32,000 nucleotides of DNA. Source: an uncultured Chloroflexia bacterium (lineage in GTDB: Bacteria > Chloroflexota > Anaerolineae > Anaerolineales > Anaerolineaceae). Shown piece after piece: positions 1,457 to 24,591 of this stretch. Under the pieces are notes generated by a model. The model had not been told where the DNA came from. It worked only from the letters and a program-made list of their open reading frames with translations, and did no database searches. The stretch's first letter is position 1. Each line of letters starts with the position of its first letter. Where the stretch lies: contig OY969938.1 in the NCBI GenBank assembly GCA_963704755.1, positions 1,980,001-2,012,000 of the forward strand. The letters are read 5' to 3'. The position numbers and the translations under genes are program-made.

Positions 1457-3061
1457 ATGAGTACACCAGAAGAACCTAAAGGTATCAGCAGGCGAGATTT
1501 TCTTAAGGGTGCAGCAGTGGGCGCCGTTGCGGTCGCGGGCACCGGGATTATGGGCGCTTGCGCTCCCAAAGTCGCCGCCCCCACCCCAGAAGCAAGCACC
1601 CAGGCCCAGGCTTCTTTCGAAATCACCCCCGATCCCATTCCGGCCAGTGAGATCAAAACCACCGTCGATGCCGATGTCGTGATCGTCGGCGCTGGCGACA
1701 GCGGTTTGACGGCCGCATTGGCGGCCAGCGAAGCCGGGGCCAAGGTCGTGGTCATTGAAAAAAGCGAGACTTTTAACGGCCGTGGGTTTGGTAACGGGGC
1801 CATTGGCACCAAGTTTCACACCCAACAGGGCATCCAATTAGACAAGAAGAAAATTGTCAACGAATTGATGCGCTGGGCCGGAAATAAGGCCGAGCAGCCG
1901 CGCATCGAGATGTGGGCCAATCACAGCGGCGAGGTTTACGATCACATCATCGATCTGGCCACCGCCGCCGGCCTGGCAGTGACGCTATTCCCGGCCGCGG
2001 ATGATCCCGCCCTGGCTTATCCTGAATACCCCACCTGCCTGGTGTTCGGCAGCAAAATGGACCAGCTCGAGCTGCTGGGCGTCATCGAAGCCGAGGACAA
2101 AAAGAACGGCGTTGACTTCCATTATTCCATGAGCGCGGAACAGCTCGTTCGCGATTCCAGTGGGCGGGTAACGGCAGTGATCGCCTCCGACAGCACCGGC
2201 GCCTACACTCAATTCAACGCCAAGAACGGTGTCATCCTGAGCACCGGTGACTACGGTCACAACCAGGAAATGTTGGATAAATGGTGCCCCTGGGTCAAAA
2301 ACGTGGACGCCGTGATTTATACCCCCGCAGTCAACACCGGCGACGGGCACAAAATGGGTTTATGGGCCGGCGCCGCGCTGCAAGATTATCCGCATGCGGC
2401 TATGATCCACACCCTGGGTGGCGGGCCTTTGTCGATGAACCCGGGCCTGCGGGTAAATATGCTCGGTGAACGTTACGAGAACGAGGACGTCCCCAACCCC
2501 TACATCTGCAACTCGCGCATGCGCCAGCCCGGTAACGTCGTCTGGGCCGTGTACGACTCGCAATGGGCCGATACCGTGGTCAAACAGGACCCCGGCTTTG
2601 GACGCACCACTGCAGCCGATGGCGTAGCCGACAGCATCGACACCGCCGTGAAAAACGGCACCGTCTTGAAATCCGACACGGTCGAAGGACTGGCTACTGC
2701 GATGGGTGTCCCGGCGGATGCCTTGAAAGCCACCCTGGAGCGCTACACCGAACTGGCCAAGAACCAGGACGATGAAGATTTTGGTAAACGGGCAAACAAC
2801 CTGGGGCCGATCGATACCGCGCCGTTCTATGCCACCAAAGTCGCCGCCGTCCTGCTGGTCACGCTGGGTGGGCTCAAAGTCAATACCAACCTGGAAGTGC
2901 TCGACCCCGACAGCAAAGTCATCCCCGGTCTGTACGCAGCCGGTAACGTGGCCGGTGGTTTCTATGCCAACGATTACCCCGTCCTGGCAGCCGGCTTGAG
3001 CCATGGCCGCTGCATCACCGAAGGGTACCTGGCCGGCCAATCGGCTTCCAAAGCTGCCTGA
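1457..3061 (+). CDS. Tat-exported FAD-dependent oxidoreductase 1 (FAD_binding_2; fumarate reductase / urocanate reductase / KstD-like), probable lipoprotein
   Basis: ATG at 1457 lies 7 nt after AGGAGA (1445-1450). The twin-arginine motif is SRRDFLKG and the lipobox-like end of the signal is IMGAC-APK. The dinucleotide fold is VVIVGAGDSGLTAALAASEAGAKVVVIEK. The C-terminal FAD motif is IPGLYAAGNVAGGFYANDYP. Confidence 0.85.
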   Translation: MSTPEEPKGISRRDFLKGAAVGAVAVAGTGIMGACAPKVAAPTPEASTQAQASFEITPDPIPASEIKTTVDADVVIVGAGDSGLTAALAASEAGAKVVVIEKSETFNGRGFGNGAIGTKFHTQQGIQLDKKKIVNELMRWAGNKAEQPRIEMWANHSGEVYDHIIDLATAAGLAVTLFPAADDPALAYPEYPTCLVFGSKMDQLELLGVIEAEDKKNGVDFHYSMSAEQLVRDSSGRVTAVIASDSTGAYTQFNAKNGVILSTGDYGHNQEMLDKWCPWVKNVDAVIYTPAVNTGDGHKMGLWAGAALQDYPHAAMIHTLGGGPLSMNPGLRVNMLGERYENEDVPNPYICNSRMRQPGNVVWAVYDSQWADTVVKQDPGFGRTTAADGVADSIDTAVKNGTVLKSDTVEGLATAMGVPADALKATLERYTELAKNQDDEDFGKRANNLGPIDTAPFYATKVAAVLLVTLGGLKVNTNLEVLDPDSKVIPGLYAAGNVAGGFYANDYPVLAAGLSHGRCITEGYLAGQSASKAA

Positions 3062-3232: not shown

Positions 3233-3925
3233 ATGTTTAAACGAAAACCTAAAACCTCCAAAGAAATAAAGCCTGCTGAAGGCAAACCGCAGAGGAAAAA
3301 GCCCAGCCTGCTGCGCATCAGCGTGATCGCCAACATCGCCGTGGTGGTGATCGCCGTGCTGGTGGGCGTGGGCGGGATCGTCATACACGAATCCAACACC
3401 AACCCCAACTTCTGCGCCACCTGCCACATCATGCAGCGTAACGTCAGCTCCTACCAGACCTCGAGCAACCTCGATCACGTCCACGAGGAAGCCGGGGTTC
3501 AGTGCAAGGACTGCCACAACTATCCCCTCTCGGCGGAAATTACCAGCGGGGTCGATTTCCTGATCGGCAATTACACCGTCGGGGACGACGGCGAGCTGGT
3601 CCAGCGTAAGTACGATAACGATATGTGCCTCAAGTGCCACATCAGTTACGACAAAATCGCTCAACAGACCGATTATCTCGAAAAGAACCCCCACGAGAGC
3701 CATTTCAAGGACCTGCCCTGCAACACCTGCCACATCTCGCATGGCACCCAGATCGACTACTGCGCCAGTTGCCACGACAACGGCGGCCAGCGCATGGTTG
3801 GCGGTCCGATCATCCCGCGGGCGGACAATCCCTGGGCCACCGACACCGGCGACGCCAGCGCCGATCCGAATGCGCCCAGCGTTGAGCCCACCACCCCGGC
3901 CTCCGCAAGCGCGCCGCAAGGTTGA
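3233..3925 (+). CDS. Membrane-anchored pentahaem c-type cytochrome, copy 1 (NapC/NirT/NrfH-like quinol dehydrogenase type)
   Basis: There is a Lys/Arg-rich N-terminal tail and one TM helix (ISVIANIAVVVIAVLVGVGGIVI). Five CXXCH motifs follow: CATCH, CKDCH, CLKCH, CNTCH and CASCH. The first, FCATCHIM, lies just after the TM as in NapC/NrfH/CymA. The C-terminal tail is Pro/Ala/Thr-rich. Confidence 0.9.
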   Translation: MFKRKPKTSKEIKPAEGKPQRKKPSLLRISVIANIAVVVIAVLVGVGGIVIHESNTNPNFCATCHIMQRNVSSYQTSSNLDHVHEEAGVQCKDCHNYPLSAEITSGVDFLIGNYTVGDDGELVQRKYDNDMCLKCHISYDKIAQQTDYLEKNPHESHFKDLPCNTCHISHGTQIDYCASCHDNGGQRMVGGPIIPRADNPWATDTGDASADPNAPSVEPTTPASASAPQG

Positions 3926-3932
3926 AATTCTT

Positions 3933-3987
3933 CCCGAAAAAAATAAAATTGCCGGAGCATAGCTCCGGCAATTTTATTTTTTTCGGG
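3933..3987. terminator. Bidirectional intrinsic terminator (perfect 26-nt arms)
   Basis: CCCGAAAAAAATAAAATTGCCGGAGC-ata-GCTCCGGCAATTTTATTTTTTTCGGG. A GC core stem is flanked by an A-tract 5' and a T-tract 3' on both strands. It starts 8 nt after the cytochrome stop. Confidence 0.8.
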
Positions 3988-4008
3988 ATCCTTTAAAGCG
4001 GCCGGCAT

Positions 4009-4862
4009 GGCAGAACCCTGGCTATTAAGCCAGCTTCTGCCAATAAGGAGACCCACGCAGGTGGGTCTTTGTGTCCTTGTAGGTGCAGTTTCAACTGCTG
4101 CGGCCGGGTCAATACCCCGTTTTCTACCTCAGCGATTCGCATGCCAAACGCTCTCCCGGCTTTGAAAGCCGGGCTACGAGGACCGTCACGGCGTTTTGGA
4201 TGAGTAGCTCGGGTTTCCAACCCGAGAAAACGCCGGCCCGGCAGAATTTCGTCTATAAAGCCAGCTTCTGCCCAAAAGGAGACCCACGCAGGTGGGTCTT
4301 TGTGTCCTTGTAGGTGCAGTTTCAACTGCTACGGCCGGGTCAATGCCTTGTTTTCTACCTCGGCGATACGCAAGCCAAACACTCTCCCGGCTTTGAAAGC
4401 CGGGCTACGAAAACCTTTTCGGCGCACCGGGTGGGTAGCTCGGGTTTCTAACCCGAGAAAGCGCCGGCCAAACGTTCTCCCGGCTTTGAAAGCCGGGCTA
4501 CAAAGGAGGGCATAGGGTTTCGGATGAGTAGCTCGGGTTTCCAACCCGAGAAAGCGCCGGCCCGGCAGAATTTCGTCTATAAGGCCAGCTTTTGCCAAAA
4601 AGGAGACCCACGCAGGTGGGTCTTTGTGTCCTTGTAGGTGCAGTTTCAACTGCTACGTCTGGGTCAATGCCCCGTTTTCTACCTCAGCGATTCGCATACT
4701 AAACGCTCTCCCGGCTTCGAAAGCCGGGCTACGAGGACCGTCACGGCGTTTTGGATGAGTAGCTCGGGTTTCTAACCCGAGAAAGCGCCGGCCCGGCAGA
4801 ATTTCGTCTATTAGGCCAGGTTCTGCCAAAAAGGAGACCCACGCAGGTGGGTCTTTGTGTCC
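4009..4862 (+). repeat. Repeat array A: tandem mosaic multi-hairpin units (231, 324 and 231 bp)
   Basis: The GACCCAC-GCAG-GTGGGTC hairpin recurs at 4050, 4281, 4605 and 4836. Each unit also carries these hairpins: GGCAGAA..CTGGCT..AGCCAG..TTCTGCC, GTAGGTGCAG-TTTCAA-CTGCTAC, CCCGGCTT-tga-AAGCCGGG and CTCGGGTT-tcya-AACCCGAG. The middle unit has an internal duplication of the last two modules. Confidence 0.9.
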
Positions 4863-4912
4863 TTTCCCCATTCGATGAATTATAATGAGTACCGATCCGA
4901 AAACTGTTTTGG

Positions 4913-6685
4913 TTGTTTGGATTGGGCGGCCTGGCCGCCCAATTCAAACAACCAAAAATTATTGTCCTGCTCATAGATCCCGTGCAAAATTCCAGCGACC
5001 CCATAGAAGAAGAAACCGCCCAGCCAATCGAGAATGATTTGGGGGATTACGCGCGCCAGTTGGAGGCCTCGGCCAGGTTCAATTCGGCCATGCGCCAGGC
5101 CAAATCGCGCCGGCACGCCCTCGAGATCTTGCTCAACCTGACCCTGGAGGCTTTTTCCGCGGATATCGCCGGTGTGTATGACCTGAAGGGCTCAAAACTG
5201 ATTTACAACTCCGGGCTGGGGCTGACCATCGACCCGCCGGATGAGCTCAGCGCGGATTCGAGCAACGTGCTCGGCCGGAGCATCAATTCCGACTGCGTCC
5301 TCTTTTTCGACACAGACGAATCCTCGGAGGAGGACTGCGATTTCTGCGGCTTCCTGCTGCGCCAAAAAATGAAATCGCTGCTGGTCATTCCCCTGCGGAC
5401 GACTGATGACGCGATCGGCGTATGGTTCATCGCCCTGCGCCACCCGATTAGCCTGACGGCCAACGTCGAGCAGTTGTTGAGCACATTTTCCGAAGCGGCC
5501 GGCAACACCCTCCAGCGCTTCATGGTCATGGAGGAACTCGAGCATAACGTCGCCATCCGCGAAAAAGAGCTGGGCATCCTCTACAAAATCATGACCATTG
5601 CCGGCGAGACCGGCGAGACCCAAACTCTGCTCGACCAATCGCTGGATACGACCCTGCAAGGCGTGGGCTGTTCGACCGGCGTGATCCACCTGTACGACCC
5701 GTACGAGAAACGCTTGAAGATTATCATCCGCAAAGAATTTCCGGATGAATTATTAACTTTTTTGGAACTCTCTTCCCAGACAGATCGGCTATGGATGCAG
5801 GTATTCAACAGCCAGAAGCGAGTCCAGTACGCCAACATTCCCATCCGTTCATTCCCGGAGAACCCATCTTCCACCCCCCTGGCAACCGGCTACCTGGGCT
5901 TTCCGATCCGGGCCAAGAATATCAGCATCGGCGTGCTCAGCCTGTTCGGCGACCCGGAGCACCTGCTGGACCCGACCATCGTCCAGATTGTCAGCTCGGT
6001 CACCGACCAGCTCGGGCTGGCTTACGAAAATGTGCAGTTGCGCAAACAGGCCGAAAACGCAGTCGTCCTTCAGGAACGGCAGCGGTTGGCCCGCAATCTT
6101 CACGACTCGGTTTCGCAATCGCTGTACGCGCTGGTCATCTCAGCCGACGTCAGCAAAAAGCTGCTGCGCCTCAAAGACTACCCGCACCTGCGCGAACAAT
6201 TGAGCGACATCGGCAAAGTCGCCATCATGGCGCTCAAAGAAATGCGCCTGATGCTTTTCGAGCTGCGTCCCTCCTTCCTCGGCGACGAAGGACTGATCGG
6301 GGCCCTGGAACTGCGCCTGAACACGGTCGAGCGACGGGCCGGGATCGACGCTAACCTGATTTTTGACGAACCTTTCAAGCTGCCCCCCTTCATCGAGCAG
6401 GAAGTCTACCACATCGCCATCGAAGGGTTGAACAATTCCTTGAAACACGCTGAAGCGACCAACGTGGTGATCACCATGAAAGTAAAGCCCCGTTCCTTCT
6501 GGATGGAAATCCAGGACAACGGAATCGGTTTCGATTATTCCAATGTCAGCGCCACCGGCGGGATCGGGTTGAGCAGCATGAAAGAACGCACCCTGGGCTT
6601 GAGCGGAAAGGTCGATTTCATCTCGAACCCGGGCAGCGGAACCATCGTCCATCTGGAAATACCGATCGATCCCGAACGCCAATAG
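4913..6685 (+). CDS. Cytoplasmic sensor histidine kinase with tandem GAF-like domains + HisKA_3 + HATPase_c
   Basis: The H-box is RQRLARNLHDSVSQSLYAL. The N, G1 and G2 boxes are EGLNNSLKHAEAT, QDNGIGFD and GGIGLSSMKERT. I see no hydrophobic TM segment. The start is uncertain: the TTG at 4913 is the longest option and the first ATG is at 5090. Confidence 0.85.
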   Translation: MFGLGGLAAQFKQPKIIVLLIDPVQNSSDPIEEETAQPIENDLGDYARQLEASARFNSAMRQAKSRRHALEILLNLTLEAFSADIAGVYDLKGSKLIYNSGLGLTIDPPDELSADSSNVLGRSINSDCVLFFDTDESSEEDCDFCGFLLRQKMKSLLVIPLRTTDDAIGVWFIALRHPISLTANVEQLLSTFSEAAGNTLQRFMVMEELEHNVAIREKELGILYKIMTIAGETGETQTLLDQSLDTTLQGVGCSTGVIHLYDPYEKRLKIIIRKEFPDELLTFLELSSQTDRLWMQVFNSQKRVQYANIPIRSFPENPSSTPLATGYLGFPIRAKNISIGVLSLFGDPEHLLDPTIVQIVSSVTDQLGLAYENVQLRKQAENAVVLQERQRLARNLHDSVSQSLYALVISADVSKKLLRLKDYPHLREQLSDIGKVAIMALKEMRLMLFELRPSFLGDEGLIGALELRLNTVERRAGIDANLIFDEPFKLPPFIEQEVYHIAIEGLNNSLKHAEATNVVITMKVKPRSFWMEIQDNGIGFDYSNVSATGGIGLSSMKERTLGLSGKVDFISNPGSGTIVHLEIPIDPERQ

Positions 6686-9532: not shown

Positions 9533-10237
9533 GTGAAACTCTTTAGAATACAACTATTTAAAAGAAAAGAAAAATCACCTGACTCAGATTCAGGTGAACA
9601 AAAGAGGAAAAAGCCCAGCCTGCTGCGCATCAGCGTGATCGCCAACATCGCCGTGGTGGTGATCGCCGTGCTGGTGGGCGTGGGCGGGATCGTCATACAC
9701 GAATCCAACACCAACCCCAACTTCTGCGCCACCTGCCACATCATGCAGCGCAACGTCAGCTCCTACCAGACCTCGAGCAACCTCGATCACGTTCACGAGG
9801 AAGCCGGGGTTCAGTGCAAGGACTGCCACAACTATCCCCTCTCGGCCGAAATTACCAGCGGGGTCGATTTCCTGATCGGCAATTACACCGTTGGCGATGA
9901 CGGCGAGCTGGTCCAGCGCAAGTACGATAACGATATGTGCCTCAAGTGCCACATCAGTTACGATCACGTCGCCCAGCAGACCGATTACCTGGAAAAGAAC
10001 CCCCACGAGAGCCATTTTAAGGACCTGCCCTGCAATACCTGCCATATCTCGCATGGCACCCAGATCGACTACTGCGCCAGTTGCCACGACAACGGCGGCC
10101 AGCGCATGGTCGGCGGAGCGATCATCCCGCGGGCGGACAATCCCTGGGCCACCGACACCGGCGACACCAGCGCCGATCCGAATGCGCCCAGCGTCGAACC
10201 CACCACCCCAGCGTCCGCAAGCGCGCCGCAAGGTTGA
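9533..10237 (+). CDS. Membrane-anchored pentahaem c-type cytochrome, copy 2
   Basis: It has the same TM helix and five CXXCH motifs as copy 1. The ATG used by copies 1 and 3 is CTA here (..QLFKRKEK..). The best start is therefore the GTG at 9533, 7-12 nt after AGGAAAA, and this remains uncertain. Confidence 0.85.
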   Translation: MKLFRIQLFKRKEKSPDSDSGEQKRKKPSLLRISVIANIAVVVIAVLVGVGGIVIHESNTNPNFCATCHIMQRNVSSYQTSSNLDHVHEEAGVQCKDCHNYPLSAEITSGVDFLIGNYTVGDDGELVQRKYDNDMCLKCHISYDHVAQQTDYLEKNPHESHFKDLPCNTCHISHGTQIDYCASCHDNGGQRMVGGAIIPRADNPWATDTGDTSADPNAPSVEPTTPASASAPQG

Positions 10238-10244
10238 AATTCTT

Positions 10245-10299
10245 CCCGAAAAAAATAAAATTGCCGGAGCATAGCTCCGGCAATTTTATTTTTTTCGGG
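10245..10299. terminator. Bidirectional intrinsic terminator, identical to 3933-3987
   Basis: Same 26-nt-arm palindrome with an ata loop, starting 8 nt after the cytochrome stop. Confidence 0.8.
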
Positions 10300-10320
10300 A
10301 TCCTTTAAAGCGGCCGGCCT

Positions 10321-11230
10321 GGCAGAACCCTGGCGATTAAGCCAGCTTCTGCCAATAAGGAGACCCACGCAGGTGGGTCTTTGTGTCCTTGTAGGTGCAT
10401 TTTCAACTGCTACGGCCGGGTCAATGCCTTGTTTTCTACCTCGGCGATACGCAAGCCAAACGCTACAAAGGAGGAACAGGGGTTTTTTATTGTTTTGTGT
10501 GCTTCGCACACAAAACAATAAAAAACCCCCTATCTTAGCGGCCAGCATGGCAGAACCCTGGCTATAAAGCCAGCTTCTGCCAAAAAGGAGACCCACGCAG
10601 GTGGGTCTTTGTGTCCTTGTAGGTGCAGCTTTAGCTGCTACGGCCGGGTCAATGCCCCGTTTTCTACCTCGGCGATACGCAAGCCAAACGCTCTCCCGGC
10701 TTCGAAAGCCGGGCTACGAGGGCCGCTGCGGCGTTTTGGATGGGTAGCTCGGGTTTCTAACCCGAGAAAGCGGCCGACCTGGCAGAATCCTGGCTATAAG
10801 GCCAGCTTCTGCCAAAAAGGAGACCCACGCAGGTGGGTCTTTGTGTCCTTGTAGGTGCAGTTTCAACTGCTACGGCCGGGTCAATGCCCCGTTTTCTACC
10901 TCGGCGATACGCAAGCCAAACGCTCTCCCGGCTTCGAAAGCCGGGCTACGAGGGCCGCTGCGGCGTTTTGGATGGGTAGCTCGGGTTTCTAACCCGAGAA
11001 AGCGGCCGACCTGGCAGAATCCTGGCTACAAGGCCAGCTTCTGCCAAAAAGGAGACCCTCGCAGGCGGGTCTTTGTGCCCTTGTAGGTGCAGCTTTAGCT
11101 GCTACGGCCGGGTCAATGCCCCGTTTTCTACCTCGACGATACGCAAGCCAAACGCTACAAAGGAGGAACAGGGGTTTTTTATTGTTTTGTGTGCTTCGCA
11201 CACAAAACAATAAAAAACCCCCTATCTTAG
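10321..11230 (+). repeat. Repeat array B: mosaic multi-hairpin units (230, 230 and 234 bp) punctuated by two copies of a long AT-rich palindrome
   Basis: The GACCCAC hairpin recurs at 10360, 10590 and 10820, and as the variant GACCCTC..GCGGGTC at 11054. The palindrome GGGGTTTTTTATTGTTTTGTGTGC-ttc-GCACACAAAACAATAAAAAACCCC occurs at 10479-10529 and 11171-11221. Confidence 0.9.
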
Positions 11231-14651: not shown

Positions 14652-15335
14652 ATGTTCAAACGAAAACCCAAAACCCCCGAAGAAGTAAAGCCTGCTGAAG
14701 ACGAGCCCAAGAAGAAAAAGCCCAGCCTGCTGCGCATCAGCGTGATCGCCAACATCGCCGTGGTGGTGATCGCCGTGCTGGTGGGCGTGGGCGGGATCGT
14801 CATACACGAATCCAACACCAACCCCAACTTCTGCGCCACCTGCCACATCATGCAGCGTAACGTCAGCTCCTACCAGACCTCGAGCAACCTCGATCACGTC
14901 CACGAGGAAGCCGGGGTTCAGTGCAAGGACTGCCACAACTATCCCCTCTCGGCCGAAATTACCAGCGGGGTCGATTTCCTGATCGGCAATTACACCGTTG
15001 GCGATGACGGCGAGCTGGTCCAGCGTAAGTACGATAACGATATGTGCCTCAAGTGCCACATCAGTTACGATAAAATCGCTCAACAGACCGATTATCTCGA
15101 AAAGAACCCCCACGAGAGCCATTTCAAGGACCTGCCCTGCAATACCTGCCACATCTCGCATGGCACCCAGATCGACTACTGCGCCAGTTGCCACGACAAC
15201 GGCGGCCAGCGCATGGTTGGCGGACCGATCATTCCGCGGGCGGACAATCCCTGGGCCACCGATACCGGCGCCGATTCGAATGCGCCCAGCGTTGAGCCCA
15301 CCACCCCAGCCTCCGCAAGCGCGCCGCAAGGGTAA
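14652..15335 (+). CDS. Membrane-anchored pentahaem c-type cytochrome, copy 3 (orphan: no adjacent flavoenzyme)
   Basis: ATG at 14652. The protein is identical to copy 1 from KKPSLL through ATDTG, with five CXXCH motifs. Only the N-terminal cytoplasmic tail and the C-terminal tail differ. Confidence 0.9.
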   Translation: MFKRKPKTPEEVKPAEDEPKKKKPSLLRISVIANIAVVVIAVLVGVGGIVIHESNTNPNFCATCHIMQRNVSSYQTSSNLDHVHEEAGVQCKDCHNYPLSAEITSGVDFLIGNYTVGDDGELVQRKYDNDMCLKCHISYDKIAQQTDYLEKNPHESHFKDLPCNTCHISHGTQIDYCASCHDNGGQRMVGGPIIPRADNPWATDTGADSNAPSVEPTTPASASAPQG

Positions 15336-15346
15336 AGTTAGACCAT

Positions 15347-15399
15347 CCCGAAAATAAAAAATTGCCGGAGTTGCACTCCGGCAATTTTTTATTTTCGGG
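15347..15399. terminator. Bidirectional intrinsic terminator, variant of 3933-3987 with compensatory changes
   Basis: CCCGAAAATAAAAAATTGCCGGAGT-tgc-ACTCCGGCAATTTTTTATTTTCGGG. The arms are still perfectly complementary although both the stem top and the A/T-tract differ from copies 1 and 2. Confidence 0.8.
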
Positions 15400-15429: not shown

Positions 15430-15690
15430 GGGGTGTTTTATAGTTTTTGGTGTGCGAAGCACACCAAAAACTATAAAACACCCCTGTTTCCCTATGGTAG
15501 CGCCGACCTGGCAGAATTTCGTCTATAAGGCCAGCTTCTGACAATAAGGAGACCCACGCAGGTGGGTCTTTGTGTCCTTGTAGGTGCAGTTTCAACTGCT
15601 ACGGCCGGGTCAATGCCCCGTTTTCTACCTCAGCGATTCGCATACCAAACGCTCTCCCGGCTTTGAAAGCCGGGCTACGAAAACCTTTTT
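15430..15690 (+). repeat. Repeat block C: AT-rich long palindrome (variant, inverted) plus one partial mosaic unit
   Basis: The 26-nt arms GGGGTGTTTTATAGTTTTTGGTGTGC-gaa-GCACACCAAAAACTATAAAACACCCC span 15430-15484. They are followed by the GGCAGAA.. module, the GACCCAC hairpin at 15551, the GTAG..CTAC module and the CCCGGCTTTGAAAGCCGGG module. Confidence 0.85.
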
Positions 15691-17471: not shown

Positions 17472-17703
17472 GCTGTTAGCTGTTAGCGATTAGCTCTTAG
17501 CTGTTGGCGGATTGCGGTAGGTTGGGTTGCGGGCTCATTTATTCCGCCGGCATGCGAAGAGGCTTTCGCTTTTACCGGGCTTTGCCCGTAACCCAACAAC
17601 AGGCGCCCGGCCGGCACGGGCCCGCCCTCACCCCAACCCCTCTCCCAAAAACGGGAGAGGGGCTAAGCTAATAGCCAAATGCTAACCGCTAACAGCTAAC
17701 AGC
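17472..17703. repeat. Nested-palindrome (MITE-like) element E1 with heptamer-repeat termini
   Basis: The 17-bp perfect terminal inverted repeat is GCTGTTAGCTGTTAGCG (17472-17488) paired with CGCTAACAGCTAACAGC (17687-17703). The termini are (GTTAGCN)n heptamer runs. An inner inverted repeat is GTTGGGTTGCGGGC/GCCCGTAACCCAAC. There is also an internal hairpin CCCCTCTCCC-aaaaac-GGGAGAGGGG. Confidence 0.75.
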
Positions 17704-17706
17704 TAA

Positions 17707-18045
17707 TCACTCCCTCCCCCGGGCGGCTTCGAACGCGGCCAGGCCGGCGGGGGTCATCCGGCCGGCCTGGATCAATTCCTCCGCCCGCCTCCGGTTATCC
17801 GTTGACCATTTGCTGGCCGCCTTGCGCGGAGTGAATTTGCGGGCGTAGCGCTGCTCATCCACCCTCCGGATCTGGCTGTCGATCCAGCCGAAACACAGGG
17901 CCTCGTCCACGGTCTCCAGGTAGTCCAGGCCCGGCCTGCCGCAGCCCTTCTTATAATAGACCAGCCAGACCTCACCGGCGGTGCCATGGTTTTGCTCCAG
18001 CCAGTCGCGCCAGGCGGCGATTGATTCAAAATCCAAAAGGGTCAT
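17707..18045 (-). CDS. YdeI/OmpD-associated family protein (bacteriocin-protection-like, DUF1801-related)
   Basis: 112 aa. The segments WRDWLEQNH..EVWLVYYKK..DEALCFGWIDSQIRRVDEQRYARKFTPRK..S.WS..N are characteristic of the family. ATG at 18045 has no obvious Shine-Dalgarno sequence, because the heptamer array abuts it. Confidence 0.8.
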   Translation of the reverse strand: MTLLDFESIAAWRDWLEQNHGTAGEVWLVYYKKGCGRPGLDYLETVDEALCFGWIDSQIRRVDEQRYARKFTPRKAASKWSTDNRRRAEELIQAGRMTPAGLAAFEAARGRE

Positions 18046-18267
18046 GTTAGCGGTTAGCTTTTAGCAGTTAGCTTTTGGCAATTAGCTTTTAGCAGTTAGC
18101 CGTTAGCGGTTAGCCTGGAGGTTGCGTTCAGCGGCGTTGGCACGAGCAATGCTATGGTTATACATAGGTTATAAACCTTCCCAGGGCTCTACGCCACAGC
18201 GGTTTTCCCTCACCCCAACCCCTCTCCCAGAAACGGGAGAGGGGCTAAGAGCTAAAAGCTAACCGCT
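18046..18267. repeat. Nested-palindrome (MITE-like) element E2 with heptamer-repeat termini
   Basis: Ten consecutive heptamers of the GTTAGCN type start at 18046. The 17-bp perfect terminal inverted repeat is AGCGGTTAGCTTTTAGC (18049-18065) paired with GCTAAAAGCTAACCGCT (18251-18267). It has the same internal motif as E1: CCTCACCCCAACCCCTCTCCCAGAAACGGGAGAGGGGCTAAG. Confidence 0.75.
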
Positions 18268-18628
18268 ACCCCCGCCCAAATTGCACCAACTCGATCAGGT
18301 TACCGGCCGGGTCATAAAACATGACCCAGCGCGAAGCCTGATCCTGCTCGATGCCCCAGGGCAGGTCGATATGGTTGGCGGTCAATTTTTCAACTGACTT
18401 ATCCAGGTTATCCACCTGGAATGCCACCACCGGGAAACGGGCCGGGGTCGCATCCTGGACCACGGCCGGCTTGCCCGAAAGGATCGTCAGGTAGCTGCCG
18501 CCCAGGTCGAAATGCGGGCGGTCGCCATGTTGAGGCAGCAGATACAACCCAATCACGTCCCGGTAAAAATGGGCCGTTTTCGGCACATCCTCGGCCCACA
18601 AACTGATTACGGCAAGGCGAGTACTCAT
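18266..18628 (-). CDS. VOC (glyoxalase/bleomycin-resistance/dioxygenase) family protein
   Basis: 120 aa. The layout is typical of single-domain VOC proteins (..VISLWAEDVPKTAHFYRDVIGL...FQVDNLDKSVEKL...RWVMFYDPAGNLIEL). There is a 4-nt start/stop overlap with psuG. Confidence 0.8.
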   Translation of the reverse strand: MSTRLAVISLWAEDVPKTAHFYRDVIGLYLLPQHGDRPHFDLGGSYLTILSGKPAVVQDATPARFPVVAFQVDNLDKSVEKLTANHIDLPWGIEQDQASRWVMFYDPAGNLIELVQFGRG

Positions 18629-20288: not shown

Positions 20289-21192
20289 ATGTCCAAGTTG
20301 TGTTCTTTGAGCGAGGCCATCCAACAATATGTCCACGATGGCGATAGTGTTTACGCCGCCGGGTTTACCCACCTGATCCCCTTCGCGGCCGGGCACGAGA
20401 TCATCCGCCAGGGCCGCAAGGACCTTACCCTGGCGCGGGCCACTCCCGACCTGCTCTACGACCAGATGGTCGCGGCCGGCTGCGCCCGTAAGATCATTTT
20501 CTCCTACATCGGCAACCCCGGCGTGGGCTCGCTGCGCACCGTCCGGGCCGAAATCGAGGCCGGCCGGCTGGAATGGGAGGAATATTCGCATTTCAGCATG
20601 ATCTCGCGCCTGCAGGCCGGCGCCAGCGGCCTGCCCTTTATTCCCATGATGCCCACCGCCGCCGGCGACCTGGAAAAAGCCAACCCCAACTTCCGCCGCA
20701 TCCGCGACCCATACACCGGCCAGGAAGTGGTCACCGTACCCCCGCTCCACCCGGACGTAGCCATTGTGCACGTCCAGCGGGCCGACCGCAGCGGCAATGC
20801 CCATATCTGGGGCATTATCGGCGAGCAAAAAGAGGCCGCTTTCGCCGCCAAACACGTCATCCTGACCGCCGAAGAGATTGTGGACGAAGAGGTCATCCGC
20901 TCGGACCCCAACCGCACCTTGATCCCCGAGTTCATCGTCTCGGCCGTATGTGCCGTGCCTTACGCCGCCCACCCCTCCTACACCCAGGGCTATTACGACC
21001 GCGATAACGATTTTTACCTGGAATGGGACAAGATCAGCGAGACACGCGAGTTCGACTCAGAAATGGCTGGACGAATGGGTGTACGGGGTCCGCGACCGGT
21101 ACGAATACTGGCAAAAATTGGGCAGCGAGACCCACGAACGCTTGAAAGTCAAACCCTATCTCAGCACCCCGGTCAACTATGGAGCCTATTGA
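20289..21192 (+). pseudogene. CoA-transferase subunit A (glutaconate/3-oxoacid family I) with an apparent +1 frameshift near 21048-21060
   Basis: The frame starting at 20289 gives family-typical sequence up to ..PSYTQGYYDRDNDFYLEWDKISETRE and then unconvincing sequence. The +1 frame (tracked ORF 20950-21192) continues with QKWLDEWVYGVRDRYEYWQKLGSETHERLK. It stops 1 nt before the subunit B ATG. Confidence 0.7.
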
Positions 21193-21193
21193 G

Positions 21194-21949
21194 ATGGAAT
21201 ACAAATCCTCCGAATTGATGACGGTCAATGCCGCGCGCCTGCTGCGCGATGGCGACAAGGTTTTCGTCGGTGTGGGCGTGCCCAACCTGGCCTGCAACCT
21301 GGCCCGCCGCACCCACGCCCCCAACCTGGTCATGATTTACGAAGCCGGGGTGATCGGCGCCCGGCCGGCCCGCCTGCCGCTTTCGATTGGCGACCCCACC
21401 CTGGTCTCGGGGGCGGCCTCGGTGTGCAGCATGTACGACATCTTCAGTTTTTACCTGCAGCGCGGCAACGTGGACGTGGGCTTCCTGGGCGGCGCTCAAA
21501 TCGACCGCTACGGCAACATCAACGCGACCGTGATCGGCGACTACGACCATCCCAAGGTGCGCCTGCCCGGCTCGGGCGGCTCGATGGAGATCGCGGCCTG
21601 GGCCAACCGCTGTTACATCATCACGCCGCATCAGAAGCGACGTTTCCCCGAGCGAGTCGATTTTCGCACCTCGGCCGGCTACCTGGACGGCGGCGATCAG
21701 CGCGAGCAGGCCCAGGTGCGCGGTAAGGGCCCCCAGGCGGTGGTGACCGACCTGGGCATCCTCGAGCCGGATCCGCAGGGAGAGCTGGTCCTGACGGCCC
21801 TCCACCCGGGCGTGACCGCCGAACAGGCCCGCCAGAATACCGGCTGGCCGTTGAAAGTCGCCGGCAGCCTGCGCACTACCGAACCCCCTACCGCCGAAGA
21901 GCTGCGCATCCTGCGCGAAGAGCTGGATCCGCAAGGGATTTATTTGTAG
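21194..21949 (+). CDS. CoA-transferase subunit B
   Basis: I prefer the ATG at 21194 (MEYKSSELMTVNAARLL..), 9 nt after GGAG and 1 nt after the frame-corrected subunit A stop. Family-typical segments are FVGVGVPNLACNLA, YEAGVIG and RLPGSGGSMEIA. Confidence 0.85.
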   Translation: MEYKSSELMTVNAARLLRDGDKVFVGVGVPNLACNLARRTHAPNLVMIYEAGVIGARPARLPLSIGDPTLVSGAASVCSMYDIFSFYLQRGNVDVGFLGGAQIDRYGNINATVIGDYDHPKVRLPGSGGSMEIAAWANRCYIITPHQKRRFPERVDFRTSAGYLDGGDQREQAQVRGKGPQAVVTDLGILEPDPQGELVLTALHPGVTAEQARQNTGWPLKVAGSLRTTEPPTAEELRILREELDPQGIYL

Positions 21950-22147: not shown

Positions 22148-23082
22148 GCAGCTAAAGCTGCACCTAAAAATGCACAAAGCCCCACCTTCGTGGGGCTCCC
22201 TTTTCAGCCTGGACGACACCAAACCTAATCTCACTCGGTGGTTCAATCTGGTGTTTGGCCGAAGCAGCTCGGGTTTCCAACCCGAGAAAACGCAGCCCGC
22301 CCAGAACCTTAGCAGTGAGAACGGCTCCCACCCAAAGAGAGACCCACGCAGGTGGGTCTTTGTGTTCTCGTAGGTGCAGCTTTTGCTGCCACTAGCCCAA
22401 TCAGAGGCACCAGCCAAGCCACAATCCATTCCCCTCCCCCTGCCCCTCCCCGCTCAATAGCGCCTGGGTCGGGCATTTCCTGGTTCGCGGGGAGGGGAGT
22501 GGATTTCAGAGGATAGGGGCCTCCGGCCCCTATCCTTCTGAATTTCTTCTCCCTCTCCCGGCGGATTACGCCGATCCGTAACCGGCGCTGGCCGCTGGGA
22601 GAGGGCCGGGGTGAGGGCATTTCTCCAGCCTGCCAGGCAATATTCCGGCTACGGGATCAGGCCCTTGCCAAAAGAGAGACCCACGCAGGTGGGTCTTTGT
22701 GTTCTCGTAGGTGCAGCTTTAGCTGCCACCGGCCAGGTCAGAGGCCCAAGCCAAGCCACAATCTATTCCTCTCCCCCAGCCCCTCCCCGCTCAATAGCGC
22801 CTGGGTCGGGCTTTTCCTGGTTCGCGGGGAGGGGAGTGGATTACGCCGATCTGTAACAAGCCCTGGCCGCTGGGAGAGGGCCGGGGTGAGGGCAATTCTC
22901 CAGCCTGCCAGGCAATATTCCGGCTACGGGATCAGGCCCTTGCCAAAAGAGAGACCCACGCAGGTGGGTCTTCGTGTTCTGGTAGGTGCAGCTTTTGCTG
23001 CCGCCGGCCAGGTCAATGCCCCATGGTTCAACCGCAGGGACTCCTAAGCCAAACGCTTTCCCGGCTTAGAAAGCCGGGCTCC
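22148..23082. repeat. Repeat array D: divergent mosaic hairpin array (units 337 and 275 bp) opened by an inverted diverged copy
   Basis: The GACCCAC hairpin recurs at 22341, 22678 and 22953. An inverted copy carrying a compensatory change (GCCCCAC-cttc-GTGGGGC) lies at 22179-22196. The inner modules differ from arrays A-C: a CCCCTCCCCGC..GCGGGGAGGGG hairpin, CAGAGGATAGGGGCC-TCC-GGCCCCTATCCTTCTG, and CCCTCTCCC..GGGAGAGGGCCGGGGTGAGGG. The array ends with a CCCGGCTTAGAAAGCCGGG module. Confidence 0.85.
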
Positions 23083-23106
23083 ATAATCAAACATGAATAT
23101 TCGCGC

Positions 23107-24345
23107 TCAGACGGCTTGCGGGCGCCGCTTGACCTGGGTGTTTTGCTGCGGCTTGGCCTGGGAGTGGGTATGCTGCGGCGAATTGGCCTGGATACGCTGT
23201 TGCGGTTTGGGCTGGCTATGCTGCGGTAGTTCAACAAACCCGTCCAACTGGCGCCGTTCCAAGGGATGCTCCAACAGGCGCTCGATGGTACGCACCATGG
23301 GCAGATCCTCGCGGGTGACCAGCGAAAAAGCGGTCCCGACCTGCATCATCCGCCCGGTGCGGCCGATCCGATGGGTATAAGCCTCTGCGGTATCCGGCAT
23401 ATCGAAATTGATGACGTGCGAAATACGCGAAACATCGATCCCACGGGCGGCAATGTCGGTCGCCACCAGCACGCGCACCCGCCCGCTGCGGAAGCGGTCC
23501 ATAGCTTCCTGCCGGCGGTTTTGCGACAGGTTCCCTTGCAGAGAGGTAGCCGAAAGCCCGGCTTTGCTCAACTGGTCGGCCAATTTCTTGGCACGGTACT
23601 TGGTGCGGGTGAATACCAACACCTGCCCAACGCCCGGTTGGCCCAACAGGTTCAATAGCATCTCGGTCTTGCGGGTCTGATCGACGTTGAAAATGGCGTG
23701 ACTGACCGTCTCGATCGGATGATCGATGTCCATTTCGACCGTCTCGGGTTCATGCAAGAAATCAGTTGCCAGGGCGCGGATCGATTTGGGCATGGTAGCC
23801 GAGAACAGCAGTGTCTGGCGTGATTTGGGCAGCGTGGCTACGATCCGGCGGATGTCGGGTAAAAAGCCCATATCGAACATCTGGTCCGCCTCATCGATGA
23901 CCAGCACTTCTACGCGCGAAAGGTCAACGATACGCTGGCCCATCAGGTCCAGCAGTCTTCCCGGGCAGGCCACAGCGATTTCCACGCCGCGCTTCAACCC
24001 CGCAATCTGCGGCCGGGGGCTGACCCCACCGTACAGGGTAATGCTATGCAGGCCGGTTTTACGCCCTAACTCGCCAATAGCCACATGAGTTTGTTCAGCC
24101 AGCTCGCGGGTAGGCGAGAGAACGAGCACACGCAGTTTACCGCGTGGCCTATCCATCAGGCGTTGCAAGATGGGTAATACAAAAGCCGCGGTCTTTCCGG
24201 TCCCGGTTTGGGCCAGACCAATCACATCGCGTCCCTGCATAATAGCCGGGATGGTTTTACTTTGGATTGGAGTAGGGGTGGAATAATTTGCAGCAGAAAT
24301 ACCCGCATTAATTTGCGGGTGAAAATTAAACGTTTCGAAATTCAC
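23107..24345 (-). CDS. DEAD-box ATP-dependent RNA helicase (RhlE-like)
   Basis: The motifs are the Q-motif TPTPIQ, AQTGTGKT, PTRELA, VIDEADQM, FSATMP and HRIGRTGR. I prefer the GTG at 24345 (VNFETFNFHPQ..), 8-9 nt after AAGGA. The tracked ORF extends to 24450. The C-terminal tail is Gln/Pro/Lys-rich. Confidence 0.9.
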   Translation of the reverse strand: MNFETFNFHPQINAGISAANYSTPTPIQSKTIPAIMQGRDVIGLAQTGTGKTAAFVLPILQRLMDRPRGKLRVLVLSPTRELAEQTHVAIGELGRKTGLHSITLYGGVSPRPQIAGLKRGVEIAVACPGRLLDLMGQRIVDLSRVEVLVIDEADQMFDMGFLPDIRRIVATLPKSRQTLLFSATMPKSIRALATDFLHEPETVEMDIDHPIETVSHAIFNVDQTRKTEMLLNLLGQPGVGQVLVFTRTKYRAKKLADQLSKAGLSATSLQGNLSQNRRQEAMDRFRSGRVRVLVATDIAARGIDVSRISHVINFDMPDTAEAYTHRIGRTGRMMQVGTAFSLVTREDLPMVRTIERLLEHPLERRQLDGFVELPQHSQPKPQQRIQANSPQHTHSQAKPQQNTQVKRRPQAV

Positions 24346-24591
24346 ACAAGGTTCCTTTAGGCACAAATTTGGGCCAAGGCGAACCTCAGCCCAGTGGTGT
24401 GCACGATGAATATAGTTTCGTGACACACACGAAGATGGAGTGTACCACAATCGGCCCGATAAGTAAAATTTTGCCTTTGGAGGCGGTATAAAAATGCCTT
24501 CCAGCGGGAAGAATTGTGAATAATATAACGAGTTTTTGGTAATTTAATGCTTAAGTATTTTTATATAAAAAAATTATAATTGTAAATAGAG

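Follow-up and report, generated by a model that had tools for sequence, protein, structure and literature searches.

The stretch analysed here, 32,000 nucleotides of contig OY969938.1 (positions 1,980,001 to 2,012,000 of assembly GCA_963704755.1) from an uncultured Anaerolineaceae member of the Chloroflexota and referred to below as the window, contains a non-coding unit of ~231/232 bp that comprises five or six hairpins and fills four intergenic gaps with tandem head-to-tail copies. With a probability of roughly 0.6, we interpret these arrays as composite extragenic repeats similar to repetitive extragenic palindromic sequences (REPs) and bacterial interspersed mosaic elements (BIMEs), whose core, made of the adjoining modules B and C, is a member of a hairpin family that accompanies REP-associated tyrosine transposases (RAYTs) in Chloroflexota, and which were amplified locally by recombination. 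Because hairpin B belongs to the family that flanks RAYT genes, the arrays would represent an unusually large direct-repeat version of the known REP/BIME kind and not a new kind of system.

Hairpin B (GACCCAC-GCAG-GTGGGTC) consists of a 7-bp GC-rich stem, a GCAG loop and a TTTGTG 3' tail. Allowing up to three mismatches, its 18-nt core GACCCACGCAGGTGGGTC matched the window 13 times against 0.05 matches expected by chance, an expectation derived from dinucleotide-preserving shuffles, none of which exceeded one match. The repeats described in an initial annotation, made from the sequence alone, are therefore real and far beyond chance. Twelve copies are direct and one is inverted. Eleven of the direct copies are exact and start at 4050, 4281, 4605, 4836, 10362, 10590, 10822, 15551, 22341, 22678 and 22953; the remaining direct copy, at 11054, has two mismatches, and the inverted, diverged copy at 22179-22196 has three. 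The initial annotation had listed all twelve direct copies as well as the inverted one, but had placed two of them, at 10360 and 10820, wrongly by 2 nt. All copies lie within 19 kb, and, apart from one inverted pair, 11 copies are arranged head to tail with a spacing of 228-337 bp. Being a short (20-40 nt), GC-rich, imperfect palindrome that has a conserved unpaired flanking motif and is repeated, B has the properties by which a REP is recognised. Our repeat census covered the 32-kb window, the site of one further protein-database match on the same contig (P0247, see below) and the loci fetched from other genomes.

The composite unit was read from blastn-short matches and from units aligned in register, and we named its modules A to F; T denotes a long palindromic terminator behind the cytochrome genes described below, and P an AT-rich palindrome. 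Tandem Repeats Finder (TRF) reported a period of 231 over 4022-4469, a period of 324 over 4143-4793, a period of 93 with 2.0 copies over 4374-4562, which corresponds to an internal duplication of modules E and F, and a period of 232 with 2.7 copies at 95% over 10537-11156. Folding of the unit yielded hairpins A, B, C, E and F as well as an outer stem around F, with z-scores of -4.1 for RNA and -4.6 for DNA relative to shuffled sequences. Module C, which follows B, is the small hairpin GTAG-GTGCAG-TTTCAA-CTGC-TAC, in which GTAG and CTAC are partly paired; it exists exactly as previously written (GTAGGTGCAG-TTTCAA-CTGCTAC). Hairpin E is present or absent precisely as a 23-nt block with a CT repeat at its bounds. 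A long-range stem, GTCCTTGTAG/CTACGAGGAC, is predicted around C-D-E; a possibly compensatory C-G to T-A change in array 4 was seen by eye only, and we do not rely on it. TRF, the module map and folding together bear out the earlier view of ~231-bp mosaic units built of five or six hairpins.

The connection to transposases comes from other Chloroflexota. A search of species-representative genomes with a B 20-mer gave six matches, five of which (loci L001 to L005) stem from one Chloroflexia metagenome-assembled genome (MAG) and one Ktedonobacterales MAG and each lie within an element of ~150 nt that resembles a REPIN, the inverted REP doublet. The five elements have the same layout: an outer hairpin GGCGGTTnAAACCGCGCC and CCACAAGACC with a hairpin precede a spacer, after which come a hairpin with GGTCTTGTGG, a small hairpin and GGCGCGGTTTCAACCGCC. 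At L001, REPIN-like elements lie on both sides of a 142-aa open reading frame (ORF) with a Y1_Tnp domain (PF01797, E = 2.9e-21) that reaches 63 bits with the NCBIfam model transpos_IS200 (cutoff 55), and homologues of this protein are named 'REP element-mobilizing transposase RayT' by JGI.

Five more loci (L009, L011, L012, L013 and L014) were chosen via homology to the L001 protein alone, independently of the window DNA. At L012, L013 and L014, B-like hairpins are found on both sides of the Y1 gene (AGCCCGC-GCAG-GCGGGCT-TTGTGG, GACCCGC-GCAG-GCGGGTC-TTGTGG and CACCCGC-GGAG-GCGGGTG-TTGTGG, respectively). Across the transposase loci, the stems of the B-like hairpins covary while the GNAG loop and the TTGTG tail are constant. 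Six Chloroflexota MAG loci thus have homologous hairpins around their Y1_Tnp genes, with L009 and L011 being weaker cases than L001, L012, L013 and L014. The hairpin family to which B and C belong accompanies IS200-like/RAYT genes in MAGs of Chloroflexia, Ktedonobacterales and Anaerolineae. We built a covariance model, R1, from nine hairpins outside the window and found that it detects in the window exactly the 13 copies of B on the correct strand, 11 with an E-value of 9e-6 and two with ~1.5e-3, the next match having an E-value of 0.54. Our data suggest that three Chloroflexota classes have in common one hairpin family, which is tied to IS200-like/RAYT genes and in which a 7-bp stem rich in GC carries GNAG as its loop and ends in a TT(T)GTG tail.

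Module C shows a similar likeness. The C-type pattern GCRGYTNNARCYGC has nine matches in the window, all of them C modules, against 0.07 expected, and it recurs beside the B-like hairpins in L001-L005; since the pattern was written after both sets had been seen, it serves to illustrate the likeness but does not test it independently. In the window, module C (GCAGTTTCAACTGC or GCAGCTTTAGCTGC) differs by compensatory changes from the GCGGTTTCAACCGC hairpin found alongside B in L001-L005. The initial annotation had pointed to RAYTs on account of the GTAG/CTAC heads of this module. The proposed link has comparative support, but mainly by way of hairpin B with its TTTGTG tail and of hairpin C, the heads having contributed little.

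Head-to-tail arrays are also found at transposase genes. At L009 (GCA_025055235.1), four composite units of ~120 nt each form a direct array within which the Y1 gene lies, every unit containing three hairpins, including a B-like one (GAGCCGGC-GCAG-GCCGGC-TTTG) and a C-like one (GCAGTTTACAACTGC), and the B-like hairpins on either side of the gene have identical orientation. At L011 (GCA_054665675.1), an array of 2.9 copies of 131 bp precedes the Y1 gene and a partial unit follows it. These Anaerolineae RAYT arrays resemble those of the window in their head-to-tail multi-hairpin units, their B-like hairpins with GCAG loops and TTTG tails, and their C-like hairpins; they differ in that their units measure 115-131 nt instead of 231 nt and in that the transposase gene sits inside the arrays, which is not the case in the window. 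At L014 (a MAG contig from ENA), ~15 tandem copies of an 18-nt C-like hairpin (GGGCGATTTTAATCCGCC) occupy 2700-3000 before the RAYT gene. In the same contig, tandem units of ~50 nt lie at 3560-3700 after the RAYT gene, and restriction-modification or helicase genes neighbour the RAYT genes of both L012 (SNF2/ResIII and Eco57I/MmeI-type) and L014 (EcoEI_R_C and Methylase_S).

One inverted pair in the window, at 22148-22389, has the same layout as the REPIN-like elements of L001-L005. It is formed by an inverted C'B' at 22148-22203 and a direct B-C at 22334-22389; its arms of 56 nt are 82% complementary, its spacer of 130 nt includes module F, and a compensatory A-T to C-G change is found at position 2 of the B stem.

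The initial annotation had presumed that the repeats are dispersed beyond the locus, and this is supported by a site elsewhere in the genome. When an ORF on the minus strand of array 1 was compared with 1.84 billion representative proteins, the single match was P0247 (E = 7.8e-13), which lies on the same 4,871,623-bp contig as the window, is not encoded within it and has a best tblastn identity of 48% to it. Read on the minus strand, the matching stretch is a diverged unit E-D-C-B-A, in the same order as the unit of the window, and the loop of its B module would be CTTCG on the strand read. The genome thus has at least one further, considerably diverged composite unit, and the preserved module order implies that the whole unit, not B-C alone, is the repeated entity. 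P0247 itself is a called 'gene' of 198 aa that reads through the diverged array and contains RSGRSPDRARSST(P/L)VWHLH twice, ~98 residues apart, a spacing that suggests a unit of ~300 bp at that site. Arrays of this kind can give rise to falsely predicted proteins.

Several observations weigh against a REP/RAYT origin. The initial link rests on a 20-mer search through 596 Gb, in which about one chance match is expected by our estimate, and the sixth match (L006) lies in coding sequence and looks like such a chance match. No Y1 transposase was found in the window, and none of the best 120 homologues of the Chloroflexia RAYT is located on the contig of this genome; the cognate enzyme may thus be absent, lost or only distantly related. 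BLAST comparison of a window unit with the transposase-flanking repeats revealed no similarity outside the short hairpins and no counterpart of A, D, E and F, which implies that these modules are lineage-specific. Exact scans of the JGI metagenomes for B and F gave no matches. The repeat was also missing from L007, a 4.4-kb contig on which a paralogous cytochrome of this genome is encoded in identical form, which speaks against wide dispersion, and from the one locus examined in a related genome (L008), whose cytochrome is 66% identical. Finally, the inverted doublet typical of REPINs is not the predominant organisation, as 12 of the 13 copies of B are direct, and a 231-bp unit of six hairpins is far larger than a REP or a REPIN.

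To our knowledge, nearly all work on REP/RAYT systems concerns Proteobacteria, in which the inverted doublet is the mobile unit. The BIMEs of enterobacteria are mosaic clusters in which REPs are combined with other conserved motifs and successive REPs, of the Y and Z types, alternate in orientation. The arrays resemble them, and especially the tandemly amplified BIME-2, in being mosaic clusters with a composite unit amplified in tandem and motifs that vary between sites, but the copies of B are direct within arrays, the period is ~231 bp compared with roughly 100 bp or less, and the sequences are unrelated and come from another phylum. The module maps of the four arrays, which show an extragenic, site-variable mosaic of REP units and other motifs, thereby uphold the BIME-like modularity noted earlier. 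BOX elements of Streptococcus pneumoniae, with the structure boxA-(boxB)n-boxC, are dispersed single elements with a variable number of internal modules, and we know of no link between them and a Y1 transposase. They share with the arrays the non-coding modular build, stable hairpins and internal copy-number variation, seen here in the E-F duplication, but they lack the long head-to-tail arrangement and are unrelated in sequence.

REPs and REPINs together with RAYTs, which are IS200/IS605-like Y1 HUH enzymes, form one of the closest known systems (PMC3116915, PMC3337134 and PMC5581495). The arrays agree with this system in their short GC-rich stem-loop with a conserved unpaired tail, their extragenic position mostly in convergent or co-directional gaps, the presence of the same hairpin family beside Y1_Tnp genes in related lineages and the one inverted REPIN-like pair; they depart from it in their head-to-tail order and in the inclusion of the core in a 231-bp unit of five or six hairpins. 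REPs have been reported to favour the gaps that separate convergent or unidirectional ORFs (Di Nocera et al. 2013, PMC3733652). In agreement with this preference, the gaps that the arrays occupy separate convergent genes in three cases and co-directional genes in the fourth, so that the position of the arrays fits the REP kind. REP families are on record in Chloroflexi, and head-to-tail dimers are rare in GTAG-tagged REP families (PMC3733652). With the GTAG-tagged superfamily the arrays have in common that module C begins with GTAG and that the repeats are clustered, but B, the best-conserved hairpin, has a 3' TTTGTG tail and no GTAG head, and the order here is strictly head to tail. The clustered GTAG-23 family of T. 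roseum, presumably the Chloroflexi example of PMC3733652, belongs to this superfamily and was compared by its description.

The four arrays differ in their module content. Array 1 (3995-4862, plus strand) reads T-A-B-C-D-E-F-A-B-C-D-E-F-E-F-A-B-C-D-E-F-A-B and comprises units at 4008-4238, 4239-4562 (with the 93-bp E-F duplication) and 4563-4793 and a partial A-B at 4794-4862; its B hairpins start at 4050, 4281, 4605 and 4836, and an AT-rich palindrome of 25+25 nt at 4907-4957 terminates it. Array 2 (10307-11230, plus strand) reads T-A-B-C-D-P-A-B-C-D-E-F-A-B-C-D-E-F-A-B-C-D-P, with B hairpins at 10362, 10590, 10822 and, in variant form, 11054. Its full units, 10548-10779 and 10780-11011, are bracketed by two units (10320-10547 and 11012-11230) that end in P, a perfect palindrome of 24+24 nt located at 10479-10529 and 11171-11221; these are the units previously described as ending in an AT-rich palindrome. 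Array 3 (15430-15690, plus strand) reads T'-P'-A-B-C-D-E and has a single A-B-C-D-E unit, with B at 15551, after P' (15430-15484), an inverted P that has several changes mirrored on both arms. Array 4 spans 22148-23085 overall and starts with the inverted C'B', followed by F-A*-B-C-G-H-A''-B-C-G-H-A''-B-C-D''-E; its direct part (22334-23085, plus strand) has B hairpins at 22341, 22678 and 22953, contains modules G, H and A'' and ends in D''-E.

The duplicated, deleted and swapped modules claimed for these units are evident from the different maps of the arrays and from the 93-bp E-F duplication in TRF, and closer comparison indicates how they arose. The neighbouring units at 10548 and 10780 have no differences in the 87 positions of E-F and five in the 145 positions of A-D. 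Unit 4563 is a mosaic that is nearest to unit 15509 in A-D and to unit 4008 in E-F, and the first units of arrays 1 and 2 are alike, as expected if they lie inside the conversion tract of the cytochrome genes. Together, the E-F duplication, the near-identical neighbours, the mosaic units, the presence or absence of E and the bracketing P-ending units point to unequal recombination or slippage within arrays and gene conversion between them.

Arrays 1-3 each follow one of three near-identical genes for NapC/NirT-type (Cgr1-like) tetrahaem cytochromes, located at 3233-3925 (copy 1, plus strand), 9533-10237 (copy 2) and 14652-15335 (copy 3) and encoding proteins of 230, 234 and 227 aa, whose best NCBIfam likeness is to Cgr1, well below the cutoff. 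Directly 3' of copy 1, T forms a perfect palindromic hairpin of 27+27 nt at 3932-3988 that resembles a bidirectional terminator; the element is also present at 10244-10300 and, diverged, at 15347-15399. Array 4 is situated between a CoA-transferase gene (21179-21949) and a convergent DEAD-box helicase gene (23107-24450). The assertion that such arrays stand behind every cytochrome gene thus holds for the three copies in the window, but it does not account for array 4, nor for the paralogous cytochrome contig L007, which has no array.

The cytochrome copies share 93-100% identity over a segment that starts at about codon 25, includes T and extends into the first A-B-C-D. Their N-terminal ~25 codons differ, and so do their upstream partners, which are either of two distinct TAT flavoprotein reductases or are missing. 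Which pair of copies is identical shifts along the alignment, and this indicates gene conversion. On its left side, the homogenised segment begins near codon 25, within the coding region instead of at a repeat, so that the arrays can be at most one flank of the conversion tract. Two of the three cytochromes come after FAD_binding_2 flavoproteins with a twin-arginine translocation (TAT) signal, and LuxR-type regulators and a GAF histidine kinase are encoded nearby. The best-named homologues are from Anaerolineaceae MAGs.

Other categories of repeat or gene did not account for the arrays, as had been stated for coding sequence, CRISPR and known insertion sequences (IS), the last of which were not recognisable. 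Array ORFs have a GC content at third codon positions (GC3) of 0.40-0.65, compared with 0.70-0.84 in those large ORFs that have Pfam domains; the open strand is the minus strand for arrays 1 and 3 but the plus strand for array 2, and an exact look-up of ten spurious array ORFs found none of them in the protein collection. We rejected a coding role on the basis of the low GC3, the inconsistent open strand and the lack of homologues other than another array ORF. A CRISPR was rejected because the sequence between the B hairpins is itself repeated; the only CRISPR-DR matches in Rfam scored 16.5 bits against a gathering score of 35.

In our proposed mechanism, a Y1/RAYT-type enzyme would have recognised the B-C core as folded single-stranded DNA and spread it, an assumption that rests on the kinship of the hairpins. 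The core sits inside the larger A-B-C-D-E-F composite of ~231 bp, and this unit would have multiplied head to tail at each site as direct repeats recombined unequally or slipped during replication. Parts of units would be swapped from site to site by homologous recombination and by gene conversion, the homogenisation of the three cytochrome genes being one instance of the latter. Past strong terminators, in 3' flanks and in the gaps of convergent genes, arrays would be tolerated and may contribute to termination or protect 3' ends. Whether past or present, transposase action in this genome is inferred on this model, as is any effect of the arrays on transcription.

The alternative that survives best, which we regard as unlikely, is a purely local satellite. 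According to it, the 231-bp composite arose once, multiplied by slippage or unequal crossing-over and was spread by segmental duplication and conversion together with the cytochrome cassette, no transposase was ever involved, and the likeness of B to RAYT hairpins is due to convergence or is an old relic. Three of the four arrays do ride on the duplicated 3' flank of the cytochrome gene, and the confinement of B to 19 kb, in one orientation but for a single copy, the near identity of adjoining units, the lack of a transposase for this genome in the window or among the best 120 homologues, the repeat-free L007 and L008 and the empty metagenome scans all agree with it. However, array 4 occupies an unrelated gap, in which B-C is joined to G and H and accompanied by an inverted B-C copy, and a diverged unit exists elsewhere in the genome. 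In addition, R1 is highly specific for B, and C accompanies B in both settings, so that convergence on both is unlikely.

Quite doubtful in our judgement, and reaching further than the REP/BIME interpretation, is the view that Anaerolineae-type Chloroflexota have a distinct REP mode, in which the hairpin that the Y1 transposase recognises belongs to a multi-hairpin unit of 120-230 bp and this unit spreads and is kept as head-to-tail arrays instead of inverted REPIN doublets, arrays that could serve as portable homology blocks for the conversion and shuffling of neighbouring respiratory cytochrome/flavoprotein reductase cassettes, or that the A-B-C-D-E order conserved at two diverged loci could reflect a functional structured RNA or DNA element.

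We consider it improbable that the units act as functional RNA, either as tandem structured non-coding RNA genes, like the NsiR1-type tandem small-RNA arrays of cyanobacteria, or as long structured 3' untranslated regions that stabilise or terminate mRNAs. Folding well beyond that of shuffled controls would suit such a role, as would the constant location of the arrays in 3' flanks of genes and the intrinsic-terminator-like appearance of B with TTTGTGT, which a terminator scan partly detects. The folding is equally significant for DNA, however; it shows no consistent strand asymmetry in energy within the arrays, and covariation among the five full units of the window is essentially nil (term +1.36, 2 of 77 pairs compensatory). 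Consequently, nothing in the window favours a role as RNA over one as DNA. Moreover, no Rfam 15 family matched at its gathering score anywhere in the window, and permissive thresholds yielded generic hairpin matches only; no unit contains a promoter-like site, and the arrays start past T, a very strong bidirectional terminator.

It is very improbable that the units are miniature inverted-repeat transposable elements (MITEs) or end remnants of an IS with terminal inverted repeats, palindrome-associated transposable elements (PATEs) of the IS200/IS605 type, or attC-like sites that shuffle cytochrome 'cassettes': the 56-nt inverted pair with its 130-nt spacer is MITE-like, and a repeat array stands behind each of the three cytochrome genes, much as an attC site does behind an integron cassette, but the 231-bp unit does not end in inverted repeats, no target-site duplication was seen by eye at the array edges or at the 22148-22389 inverted pair, one unit used as query gave no match in the plasmid and phage collections, a scan of viral contigs was likewise empty, and the duplicated cytochrome segment starts inside the gene instead of at a repeat. 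Comparison of the 29 main ORFs of the window with Pfam for domains found no transposase, integrase or recombinase domain, TnpB is likewise missing from the window, and it contains no tRNA; an integron attC array was rejected on the lack of an integrase and the start of the duplicated segment inside a gene, the attC core motif not having been formally searched.

If confirmed genome-wide, the REP/BIME interpretation would widen the range of architectures of domesticated transposon systems to include the head-to-tail composite arrays of Anaerolineae, and the arrays could serve as a strain-typing marker and be a known source of assembly trouble in poorly cultured bacteria. As they mark the 3' edge of a gene-converted cytochrome present in three copies, they offer a convenient locus for the interplay between a repeat block and the homogenisation of paralogues. 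Current understanding is not overturned by these repeats.

Multiple cytochrome copies are not restricted to the window: in the related genome of L008 (P0002 cluster, on a contig of 5,367,027 bp), five proteins fall into the same 90% cluster of this cytochrome and some are truncated, with lengths of 138-212 aa, which implies that multi-copy and possibly decaying paralogues recur in the lineage. The window also contains seven AT-rich palindromes, perfect or nearly so, which measure 50-57 nt and have loops of 1-3 nt and GC clamps, located at 3932-3988, 10244-10300, 15347-15399, 10479-10529, 11171-11221, 15430-15484 and 4907-4957, all of which look like bidirectional terminators. Two MITE-like elements of ~230 bp, at 17472-17706 and 18045-18268, have the heptamer TTAGCNG at their bounds in inverted runs and contain the hairpin CCCTCACCCCAACCCCTCTCCC-AAAAAC-GGGAGAGGGG in each case; together they flank a small ORF without a Pfam match on the minus strand (17707-18045). 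A related motif, CCCTCTCCC/GGGAGAGGG...GGGGTGAGGG, is found in module H of array 4 (22553-22620 and 22838-22895), in the opposite orientation to that in the MITE-like elements.

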